This document shows positions 3,876-57,039 of a stretch of DNA of 64,000 nucleotides, in pieces. The DNA is taken from assembly GCF_003334255.1 (NCBI RefSeq), contig NZ_QOWU01000011.1. The stretch is one strand, 5' to 3'. The DNA comes from Escherichia coli (GTDB lineage: Bacteria > Pseudomonadota > Gammaproteobacteria > Enterobacterales > Enterobacteriaceae). The notes beneath the pieces are model-generated. The model was not told where the DNA came from and ran no database searches. It saw nothing but the letters and a program-made list of their open reading frames with translations. How positions within the stretch are numbered: position 1 is the first letter of the stretch; each line of letters opens with the position of its first letter. Made by a program: the position numbers and the translations under genes.

Positions 3876-4658
3876 TTAGGAACTTATCTCTCCATCCTGA
3901 CCCGATGGCGCACTGAACTCAACCCTTTCATTTTCAGGAAGCAGACCGCGCCAGCCAAATTGTGATAACGCCTGCATCCAGGTGTCGTCCAGGCCCGCGT
4001 GAATAGTCAGCGGCTCGCCAGTAAAAGGATGCGTCAATGACAACTGACTGGCATGTAGCATTAACCGCTGGAGGCCAAAATGCTCAGCACCGCTGCGATT
4101 CTGGCGTAAATCGCCATGTTTGCTATCGCCAATAATCGGATGACGCAAATGGGCAAGATGTCGGCGAAGCTGATGTTTGCGTCCGGTTTTCGGCTCCAGT
4201 TCCACCAGGCCGTAGCGCGTGGTCGGGTAACGTCCGGTCGCTACCGGCATTTCTACGGTCGCCAGACCGCGATAATGCGTCACTGCTGGCTGCGGGCCTT
4301 TATCTTCGCGGGCAAATTTATCAGCGATTTTGTCCAGTTCTTCCACCAGTGGATAATCCAGCACCGCTTCTTCCATCAACCAGCCGCGCACAATCGCATG
4401 GTAACGTTTCTGGATTTGGTGCTGTTCAAACTGTTGTGCCAGCAGCCGTCCGGCCTCGCTGGATAATCCCATCAACAACACACCAGAAGTGGGTCGGTCC
4501 AGACGATGAGCAGTAAAAACATGCTGGCCTATCTGGTCACGCACGGTTTGCATGACCACTACTTTCTCGTCGCGATCCAGCCAGCTGCGGTGAACCAGCC
4601 AGCCGGAGGGTTTATTTACCGCAACCAGCCATTCATCCTGATAGAGTATTTCCAGCAT
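3876..4658 (-). CDS. truC: tRNA pseudouridine(65) synthase
   Basis: 260 aa ORF, RluA-family motif [12 protein letters not shown] with catalytic Asp. Confidence 0.9.
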
Positions 4659-4987
4659 TAGCTCGCATCATCCGCAAAAAGAGCATCCAGTTTTTCCAGC
4701 TCAGCCAGAATAAGCGCGCGTTGCGGATGGTCCGTCGCCAGCGCCATTTCATAATAGGGTGCAACGGCAAAAGCGCCCGGTAACGGCTGTTTGTTATCTA
4801 ACAAATCGTGCATTCGCGGGATCAGCACCCACTGCAACCACTCCAGTGGTTCCATGGTGTCCATAAAGAACGGTTGGGTACTATTAAATTGATGCGGCTG
4901 GGGTTCATCGTTTCGCCAGTGCTGATGTTCACGCAGTAACGCTTCAAGCGCCTGCAACTGGAGACGAACGCGGTCATGAGTGGTCAT
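4658..4987 (-). CDS. yqcC: DUF446 family protein
   Basis: 109 aa ORF MTTHDRVRLQLQALEALLREHQHW...; 1 nt overlap with truC start. Confidence 0.85.
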   Translation of the reverse strand: MTTHDRVRLQLQALEALLREHQHWRNDEPQPHQFNSTQPFFMDTMEPLEWLQWVLIPRMHDLLDNKQPLPGAFAVAPYYEMALATDHPQRALILAELEKLDALFADDAS

Positions 4988-5029: not shown

Positions 5030-5398
5030 AATAAAAAAAGGGAGCACTGTATTCACAGCGCTCCCGGTTCGTTTCGCAGCATTCCAGCTACTTTTGTTGC
5101 TCCCTGCTCATCCTTGACAACTTTTCCTCTGGCCTTGCGGCCAATCGTTCATCCTGAACTATTGCTTCCTGCTCACACCACCCCGATGTGATACTTCATC
5201 CTGAAGTGTCCCTGGCCTTCCTGACCCACCGAATCATCCTGACCGGTTCTCATTCTCCATCCTGGAGGTGTCCTTTAACGCGTCCTGCGTCATCCTCTTC
5301 GCTTCATCCAGAAGCCTTTCCCTGAAACACCATCCTGGTGTGTCCTGCAGAAGTGTCATCATCCTGATGTTCACTTCGTTGTCTGACTCCCTGTCGAC
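5030..5398 (-). ncRNA. csrB: CsrB small RNA (CsrA-sequestering), about 369 nt
   Basis: Plus strand carries about 9 copies of catcctg (reverse complement of CAGGAUG) plus further GGA variants at irregular spacing in 5100-5370; 5' end reads GUCGACAGGGAGUCAGACAACGAAG on the minus strand; ends with hairpin GGGAGCGCUGUGAAUACAGUGCUCCC plus U7 (plus-strand 5030-5066); no ORF. Confidence 0.85.
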
Positions 5399-5571
5399 GA
5401 AGATAGAATCGTCTTTTTCGCGAAGTCTTACAAGGCGCTTACAGACAATGCCTTAAGGAAAATTTCATATGAAAGTTAAGAATTAACAATCAACATTTTG
5501 ATTTTAAATGAAAATAACGATTCTTATCTTTTTAAGTATTCGCTTATTTCCTGGCGATCTCCTACAGAGTC

Positions 5572-5589
5572 TGTAAGAGATCTCTCACA
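5572..5589. promoter_or_regulatory. 18 bp near-perfect palindrome TGTAAGAGATCTCTCACA upstream of csrB, matches UvrY/SirA response-regulator site
   Basis: Palindrome seen directly, about 180 bp upstream of the csrB 5' end; UvrY/SirA sites of this form are known upstream of csrB. Confidence 0.6.
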
Positions 5590-5608: not shown

Positions 5609-6154
5609 TTACAGAAGAGGCTTAAGTTGATTAAGGAATTCCGCAAGATTTGAGGCTAAATGCGTCCGTTTACGTGTTCCCAGCGTCTCTTTGCACACTT
5701 CACCGGAGAGATTACACACCGAGATGACCTCTAACTCTTCTTCCAGCGTCGCGATAAATAGTGTGGGCGGCAGTTTTAGCCTTTTCTGAGTCACCAGATG
5801 ACCAATCAGATTTTCCTGCACCCGACGGAAGTCGTCTTCACTCCAGGTTTGCAGCAATGTCAGTTTGATATCGCCAAACTGCGCGTGCATATCCCCGGCA
5901 AACTGAGTCGTATAAAAGGTATGAATTGTGGGTTGTATCACAATATCAAAAGCGCGTTCAACCGCGTTTACATTTTGTTCCCCGGTAAACGGCTGGGGTT
6001 GCCAGTATACGGCATCTTCGGTAGTTGAAATAATGCACGGTGAAGGAACACCGTACAGTTCCTCACTTAACGGCCAGCTTTTATGCTCTTCATGCCACGC
6101 ATCGCAGTAGCGTGCAGTAAAATCTTTCAGGGCTTGTGCGGTCAAATCGTCCAC
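5609..6154 (-). CDS. syd: SecY-interacting protein Syd
   Basis: 181 aa [32 protein letters not shown]... Confidence 0.9.
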
Positions 6155-23559: not shown

Positions 23560-23775
23560 TAGTGGCGGCACTTCCTGAGCCGGAACGAAAAGTTTTATCG
23601 GAATGCGTGTTCTGGTGAACTTTTGGCTTACGGTTGTGATGTTGTGTTGTTGTGTTTGCAATTGGTCTGCGATTCAGACCATGGTAGCAAAGCTACCTTT
23701 TTTCACTTCCTGTACATTTACCCTGTCTGTCCATAGTGATTAATGTAGCACCGCCTAATTGCGGTGCTTTTTTTT
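23560..23775 (+). ncRNA. gcvB: GcvB small RNA (Hfq-dependent regulator of amino-acid/peptide transporters)
   Basis: ACUUCCUGAGCCGGAACGAAAAGUUUUAUCGG..., GU-rich stretch GUUGUGAUGUUGUGUUGUUGUGUUUGCA, internal terminator GUAGCAAAGCUACCUUUUUU and final terminator GCACCGCCUAAUUGCGGUGC plus U8. Confidence 0.85.
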
Positions 23776-28260: not shown

Positions 28261-28337
<77 letters not shown>

Positions 28338-56957: not shown

Positions 56958-57039
56958 AAAAAAAACCTGCGCATCTGCGCAGGCTGGTGTAATTCATGTG
57001 CTCAACCCGAAGTTGACTTCACCTATCAATACCTCTGGG
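56958..57039 (-). ncRNA. omrB: OmrB small RNA (paralog of OmrA)
   Basis: Minus strand reads CCCAGAGGUAUUGAUAGGUGAAGUCAACUUCGGGUUGAGCACAUGAAUUACACCAGCCUGCGCAGAUGCGCAGG plus U8; same 5' end and terminator as OmrA. Confidence 0.85.

Follow-up and report, generated by a model that had tools for sequence, protein, structure and literature searches.

Between yqcC and syd, no feature is present in those RefSeq PGAP records that show 100% identity to the DNA analysed here, a stretch of 64,000 nucleotides from Escherichia coli (contig NZ_QOWU01000011.1 of assembly GCF_003334255.1; hereafter the window). A sequence-only reading, made from the letters alone, had proposed for the minus strand of this interval the CsrA-sequestering RNA CsrB preceded by an activator site. 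We assign positions 5030–5398 of the minus strand to E. coli csrB, a non-coding RNA with a UvrY activator site, and put the probability of this explanation as a whole at about 0.99. The gene and its two neighbours, the latter given for context only, are placed as follows.

5030–5398, minus strand (5' end 5398, 3' end 5030): csrB, a 369-nt non-coding RNA, from the Rfam match and identity to K-12
5609–6154, minus strand: syd (SecY-interacting protein), the upstream neighbour
4658–4987, minus strand: yqcC, the downstream neighbour

The RF00018 (CsrB/RsmB) covariance model matches the locus with 380.4 bits (E-value 1.2e-110) compared with a gathering score of 71, and the match, from 5389 to 5030 on the minus strand, covers model positions 1–356 of 356. 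The covariance-model search that the sequence-only reading had named as a check on its proposal was thus passed by a full-length match far above the gathering score. The window and the K-12 MG1655 chromosome show 0 differences over 669 nt, from −260 to +409 as counted from the annotated 5' end of the ncRNA csrB (b4408, 369 nt, 2924156..2924524, between yqcC and syd), and this identity places csrB at window positions 5398 to 5030. CsrB of K-12 (b4408, RF00018) and the RNA of the window have the same sequence, length, 22 GGA motifs, terminator, neighbours and palindrome at −183/−182. A query with the 1.6-kb locus found it in 5426 of 5426 complete E. coli genomes, in 3214 of them with at least 99% identity; the neighbouring genes are syd, yqcC and truC. 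The locus combines a score above the gathering threshold with a display of GGA motifs, a terminator on a non-coding RNA and the orthologous position between syd and yqcC. The gene, strand and coordinates originally proposed are upheld, the RNA having its 3' end at 5030 and the palindrome discussed below extending as far as 5589.

The most conspicuous property of the minus strand from 5398 to 5030 is its purine-rich composition with repeated heptamers resembling CAGGAUG, which form the following array.

5062–5390, minus strand: GGA array of 22 motifs (6 CAGGAUG, 9 CAGGA[ACU]G), from counts, the Rfam consensus and conservation

The 369-nt RNA contains 22 GGA triplets, 21 of them inside the 360-nt Rfam span, where TCC, the antisense equivalent of GGA, occurs only 2 times. 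For comparison, 360-nt segments taken from this strand across all 64 kb contain on average 4.65 GGA (standard deviation 2.5), and the highest count outside csrB is 13. We used this sliding count over the whole window as the reference in place of dinucleotide-preserving shuffles of the csrB RNA, which are a weak null: about 14 GGA remain after shuffling, because the GG/GA-rich composition of the RNA already carries the motif. The longer motif is less affected, as exact CAGGAUG is expected 0.1 times in the shuffles (maximum 2) and was found 6 times, at window positions 5366, 5337, 5264, 5241, 5203 and 5156 on the minus strand. The relaxed form CAGGA[A/C/U]G occurs 9 times, and so does GGAUG; the earlier count of nine exact CAGGAUG was therefore wrong and fits either of these two patterns, while the estimate of roughly 18 GGA motifs was right about a GGA-rich array and has to be raised to 22 in total. 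Our count agrees with the 22 GGA sequences reported for E. coli CsrB (PMC7652899, PMC5027483), for which about 18 CAGGA(U/A/C)G elements per approximately 18 CsrA subunits have also been described (PMC7652899).

The placement of the GGA motifs was assessed against the Rfam consensus structure, which puts 11 of the 22 into hairpin loops and 9 into unpaired linkers, leaving 2 in stems. GGA is present in 11 of the 12 consensus hairpin loops, the twelfth being the loop of the terminator, and since loop positions make up 12% of triplet positions, the enrichment of GGA in loops is significant with p = 2e-5 by the binomial test. Loop placement had been listed beforehand as a second check, and the 20 unpaired motifs bear it out. 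Averaged over the GGA positions, the probability of being unpaired in the thermodynamic ensemble is 0.80, compared to 0.44 for the whole RNA. The single-sequence minimum free energy (MFE) fold (−120.7 kcal/mol, z = −3.85) is only partly congruent with the Rfam consensus, with only 9 GGA in hairpin loops, 4 others partly paired and some long-range pairing added, and we therefore relied on the consensus structure and on covariation.

To measure covariation, we aligned the RNA of the window and 14 homologues from Enterobacterales (15 rows) with MAFFT, ignoring structure; the homologues were drawn from Citrobacter, E. albertii, Pluralibacter, Enterobacter, Pseudescherichia, Yersinia, Serratia, Edwardsiella, Pantoea, Mixta and Dickeya. 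Base pairs of the Rfam consensus are intact in 91.9% of the alignment cells compared with 35–48% when the 3' partners are slid by 1–3 columns. Compensatory changes on both sides were found in 24 of 54 pairs, and none of 500 shuffles attained the observed values. The motifs themselves are also conserved: identity to the window row is 88% at GGA positions compared with 69% elsewhere in the RNA, 8 GGA sites were found in all 15 species, and the number of GGA per RNA stays at 19–25 while the length of the RNA ranges from 291 to 382 nt.

This pattern of conservation bears on whether the locus could encode a small protein instead, either through a sense ORF of 46 aa with a GTG start (5374..5234) or through one of the antisense ORFs of 45–71 aa. 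Such mechanical ORFs do overlap the gene, and the sense ORF is open both in the window and in E. albertii. However, conservation tracks the GGA triplets and the paired stems and not codons. Among the 14 relatives, the length of the segment corresponding to the sense ORF is not divisible by 3 in 8, in-frame stops occur in 7 and the start is lost in 8; a search of four overlapping ORFs against NCBIfam gave no match at E ≤ 0.1, and no CDS is annotated at csrB in the K-12 or PGAP records. We rejected the coding reading, as the ORFs match no family and are broken in most relatives, and consider it very improbable. The initial description of the interval as being without an ORF holds insofar as no ORF is conserved or matched to a family, and has to be qualified for the mechanical ORFs of 45–71 aa.

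If the product is an RNA, it could conceivably be a different member of the Csr/Rsm clan (CsrC, RsmY, RsmZ etc.), as the clan has in common the GGA-in-loop architecture and an upstream UvrY/GacA site. CsrC is shorter than CsrB, has fewer GGA sites and occupies a different locus. E. coli CsrC (clan CL00106) is likewise a GGA-bearing CsrA sponge activated by UvrY-P, with an upstream inverted repeat at a similar distance, but its repeat is weaker and of different sequence (TGTGAGACATTGCCGATA) and IHF is not needed (PMC4682653). Competition within clan CL00106 retains CsrB, with 380 bits over the full 356-position model, and the length of 369 nt, the syd-csrB-yqcC synteny and the 100% identity to b4408 all point to csrB. 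The CsrC identity was rejected because CsrC is not the best-scoring clan member here and the surroundings are those of csrB, and we regard assignment to any clan member other than CsrB as extremely improbable. GacA is the orthologue of UvrY, and the palindrome upstream of RsmY and RsmZ of Pseudomonas is of the TGTAAG...CTTACA type. RsmY and RsmZ serve as GGA-loop decoys for RsmA/RsmE as CsrB does for CsrA, and at about 120 nt they are far shorter than CsrB, with fewer GGA. RsmY and RsmZ are protected from decay by CsrA-family proteins, and no CsrD orthologue is present (PMC5027483).

With the RNA identified as CsrB, the DNA upstream of it can be compared with the published description of csrB activation. 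Two elements lie far upstream of the 5' end.

5572–5589, minus strand (−191 to −174, centre −183/−182): 18-nt UvrY-P palindrome, reading TGTGAGAGATCTCTTACA in the csrB direction, from sequence and the published footprint
5557–5566, minus strand (−168 to −159): extra UvrY-type half-site TGTAGGAGAT, 5 bp downstream of the palindrome, from the alignment and PMC4682653

The plus-strand form of the palindrome, TGTAAGAGATCTCTCACA, occurs once in the window, at 5572–5589, where 0.03 occurrences are expected by chance with 3 mismatches tolerated. The sequence-only reading was correct about the presence of an 18-bp palindrome, whose symmetry is imperfect, with 8 of 9 pairs formed and positions 4 and 15 unpaired; the distance of about 180 bp also agrees, the centre being 182.5 nt from the K-12 annotated 5' end at 5398. 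The label of UvrY type proved apt, as the sequence and position equal those of the published UvrY site (PMC4682653). At the identical sequence and position, Zere et al. (2015) observed both a UvrY ChIP-exo crosslink and DNase I protection; in vivo binding of UvrY at the csrB palindrome was BarA-dependent, and ChIP-PCR was also reported (PMC4682653). The same study describes a partially conserved TGTAGGAGA located 5 bp downstream of the palindrome (PMC4682653), and in our alignment the T, G, T, G, A and T of this half-site, TGTnnGnnAT, are invariant in 15 species. The 18 positions of the palindrome are near-invariant amid diverging flanks, which is partly by construction because the loci were chosen by the palindrome pattern. 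It is exceedingly unlikely that the palindrome is instead the transcription terminator of syd or a chance occurrence with no role as a protein-binding site for csrB: it does lie directly downstream of syd, whose stop codon is 20 nt upstream of it, but its arms abut without a loop, no T-run follows, a terminator scan finds nothing there, a site of this kind recurs at a similar distance upstream of GGA-rich RNAs in many Gammaproteobacteria, and the direct UvrY-P footprint by DNase I and the ChIP-exo data (PMC4682653), together with the low chance expectation, led us to reject this possibility.

The promoter elements were read from the 220 nt preceding CsrB, aligned for the same 15 species. Beside the palindrome and the TGTnnGnnAT half-site, the conserved islands in this segment comprise four positions of an IHF match, TTG at −35 to −33 and A at −11, and they suggest the following elements.

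5491–5503, minus strand (−105 to −93): IHF consensus match AATCAAAATGTTG (exact to WATCAANNNNTTR), from motif match and alignment
5428–5433, minus strand (−35 to −30): candidate −35 hexamer TTGTAA, with TTG at −35 to −33 invariant in 15 species
5405–5410, minus strand (−12 to −7): candidate −10 hexamer GATTCT, a weak 3/6 match, with A at −11 nearly invariant in 15 species

From these cross-species invariants we infer that the csrB promoter would consist of TTGTAA, a 17-nt spacer and GATTCT. A scan with the sigma-70 consensus upstream of csrB did not find the promoter, and this miss is consistent with a weak, activator-dependent promoter, as would be expected for elements of this kind. Within the IHF match, A−105, A−101, T−95 and T−94 are nearly invariant in otherwise divergent spacer DNA. 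A putative IHF site has been placed between two UvrY crosslinks, and CsrB levels depend approximately 10-fold on IHF (PMC4682653). Transcription of csrB did not occur in vitro from defined components that included UvrY-P and IHF (PMC4682653), which implies that activation needs at least one further factor.

The second UvrY crosslink, from −56 to +25, was detected by ChIP-exo without an in vitro footprint (PMC4682653), and the −35 region falls within it. Two copies of TGTAAG are found here, one at −34 to −29, overlapping the −35 hexamer, and one at 5443..5438 (−45 to −40). In addition, the minus strand contains a perfect inverted repeat of 9 nt, with CTTACAGAC at 5577..5569 and GTCTGTAAG at 5446..5438, which pairs the promoter-side arm of the palindrome and its 3-nt flank with the −48 to −40 region; the latter copy lies within the promoter-proximal crosslink. 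In the 15-species alignment this repeat is conserved only in the Escherichia/Citrobacter group. These observations lead us to speculate, tentatively and on the strength of the sequence, that the TGTAAG copies and the 9-nt inverted copy might be low-affinity UvrY contacts, reached from the −183 site through an IHF-induced loop. If so, such proximal low-affinity contacts would account for a second crosslink that lacks an in vitro footprint.

At the opposite end of the gene, three further features concern termination and decay of the RNA.

5030–5065, minus strand: intrinsic terminator, an 11-bp stem with a 4-nt loop (5065..5040) followed by a T7 tract, from the terminator scan
5068–5074, minus strand: AAACGAA, RNA positions 325–331, unstructured and just upstream of the terminator, from the alignment and PMC5027483
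5083–5103, minus strand: GGA sites 20 (5103..5101) and 21 (5085..5083), upstream of the cleavage site, from the alignment

The stem has 7 G-C pairs among its 11 bp and is followed by TTTTTTT, bearing out the strong terminator described at the outset, and GGA site 22 sits within this stem. The terminator helix (helix 12) is 94.7% paired in the 15 species, with compensatory changes in 5 pairs. For CsrB to decay, RNase E has to cut within a stretch without structure that directly precedes the terminator (Vakulskas et al. 2016, PMC5027483), and the in vitro cleavages were mapped to A327 and A331 and termed the ‘necessary cleavage site’ (PMC5027483). These nucleotides correspond to window positions 5072 and 5068, both within the AAACGAA block, which is invariant in 15 of 15 Enterobacterales. 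GGA sites 20 and 21 are each present in 15 of 15 species; CsrA bound at these two sites blocks the cleavage by RNase E, and CsrD overrides the block (PMC5027483). The RNase E site of the window and the location of GGA site 22 in the stem both agree with that account (PMC5027483).

Taken with the literature, these elements suggest the following course of events at csrB. CsrA binding and its stoichiometry, the UvrY-P footprint, the dependence on IHF and the RNase E/CsrD pathway are literature-based and refer to the identical sequence, while the family, the K-12 identity, the motif counts, the loop placement, the covariation, the promoter conservation and the linkage of palindromes with GGA arrays were computed here. 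UvrY-P, the response regulator of the BarA-UvrY two-component system, which activates csrB transcription (PMC4682653), would bind the 18-nt palindrome at −191 to −174 and act through the IHF-bent spacer (−105 to −93) to render the weak sigma-70-type promoter active. The 369-nt transcript would remain untranslated and fold into successive short hairpins, with GGA exposed in the loops and linkers. With each CsrA dimer taking two GGA motifs, one CsrB could sequester roughly nine dimers, and the mRNA targets would thereby be relieved of CsrA control. According to the account of Liu et al. (1997) given in PMC7652899, CsrB and CsrA purify together, with about 18 CsrA subunits on each RNA, and CsrB acts as an antagonist of CsrA. 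Turnover would begin when RNase E cuts the invariant AAACGAA block, a step that CsrA at GGA sites 20/21 is expected to block and that CsrD together with EIIA-Glc would release by overriding the block.

The relationship between the palindrome and GGA-rich RNAs extends to other genomes. A scan for TGTRAGAGATCTCTYACA in one genome per species (about 100,000 genomes) returned at least 120 stretches, and the taxa among the matches listed were Enterobacterales, Vibrio, Photobacterium, Shewanella, Halomonas/Vreelandella, Alcanivorax, Kangiella and one Porphyromonadaceae MAG. Among the matches listed, 114 of 125 palindrome sites have a GGA-dense side (≥10 GGA per 300 nt), the median GGA count per 300 nt is 22 on the richer side compared to 4 on the other side and 3.5 in the background, and strong arrays start about 160 nt away from the palindrome (median). 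In 17 of 20 taxonomically spread loci sampled, Rfam places CsrB beside the palindrome with a score above gathering. The Rfam match starts 166–197 nt from the palindrome in Enterobacterales and 183 nt from it in the window. The palindrome and a gene for a Csr/Rsm-type RNA go together in evolution, with limited variation in the distance between them.

Several features of these loci deserve separate mention. Of the asymmetric palindromes among the matches listed, 60 read TGTGAGAGATCTCTTACA toward the RNA and 16 the reverse, with 20 palindromes being perfect; these are raw counts uncorrected for phylogeny. A GGA-rich RNA of approximately 130–170 nt with an intrinsic terminator and a palindrome about 165–185 nt upstream is present in five Halomonas/Vreelandella loci (L048, L046, L007, L064, L060), and the same short, terminated, GGA-rich RNA with an upstream palindrome is seen in three loci of Alcanivorax (L005, L016, L056) and one of Kangiella (L026). 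Rfam assigned no family at E ≤ 0.01 to L048, L046 and L005. A relaxed-threshold Rfam run on nine palindrome loci lacking either a gathering-level match or a GGA array gave no match at the Halomonas/Vreelandella, Alcanivorax, Kangiellaceae and Salinicola loci searched. The RNAs of Halomonas/Vreelandella, Alcanivorax and Kangiella are probably Csr/Rsm-type decoys that the Rfam models miss; a literature search on Rsm RNAs of Halomonas found nothing specific, and we do not claim novelty for them.

Two Shewanella loci (L080, 4896–5813; L019, 7671–8954) contain two tandem CsrB-like RNAs each, with scores of 47–67.5 bits and E-values from 1e-9 to 7e-16, and as these scores fall just under the gathering score of 71, default Rfam annotation would miss them. 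Two palindromes 500–790 nt apart were found in three Photobacterium loci (L062, L073, L027) and one of Shewanella (L069). In L062, L073 and L069 a GGA array accompanies each copy, resembling tandem csrB paralogues; in L027 an array is visible at one copy only because the other copy is located at the end of the locus. In a Kangiellaceae MAG (L036) and in Salinicola (L061), the palindrome has no GGA-rich RNA within 420 nt, and in the Porphyromonadaceae (Bacteroidota) MAG (L044) it is accompanied by a modest GGA cluster of 11 per 300 nt. These three palindromes could have arisen by chance, mark other targets of UvrY/GacA or stem from contamination.

Apart from csrB, the window gives further Rfam matches to small RNAs that score above gathering.

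23570–23775, plus strand: GcvB, Rfam 199 bits
56756–56843 and 56958–57039, minus strand: the OmrA/OmrB pair, Rfam 96.6 and 86.1 bits
26791–26833, minus strand: ES036/CssrF, Rfam 46.5 bits compared to a gathering score of 37.6

The placement of GcvB and OmrA/OmrB relative to csrB fits the K-12 map save for one difference: the distance from csrB to gcvB is that of K-12, whereas the distance from gcvB to omrA is 220 nt shorter, which equals two tRNA copies. The csrB locus itself is without differences between the two genomes, and elsewhere the window has a single gene for initiator tRNA-Met, at 28261–28337 on the plus strand between mltA and amiC, where K-12 carries a tandem array of three (metZ, metW and metV) spaced 110 nt apart. 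Two copies of the initiator tRNA gene are present in the best-matching E. coli genomes among the matches listed, and a query with the tRNA region was covered in one place by only 226 of 5426 E. coli genomes. Either the copy number truly differs in this genome, or the tandem repeat was collapsed during assembly.

Among the records compared, the curated one of K-12 MG1655 is alone in having csrB annotated. The missing csrB feature in the PGAP records is an annotation gap and no argument against the gene: the protein-centred annotation of these records leaves approximately 620 bp of seemingly ‘empty’ DNA from syd to yqcC. The biology of csrB described here is ordinary and already known in detail, and csrB itself offers nothing new; its recognition from raw sequence serves as a positive control only, the object being a textbook protein-sponge RNA together with its activator site. 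CsrB is the founding example of a small RNA that acts through protein sequestration instead of base pairing. CsrA, the protein whose activity CsrB sets, globally regulates carbon metabolism, biofilm formation, motility and virulence.
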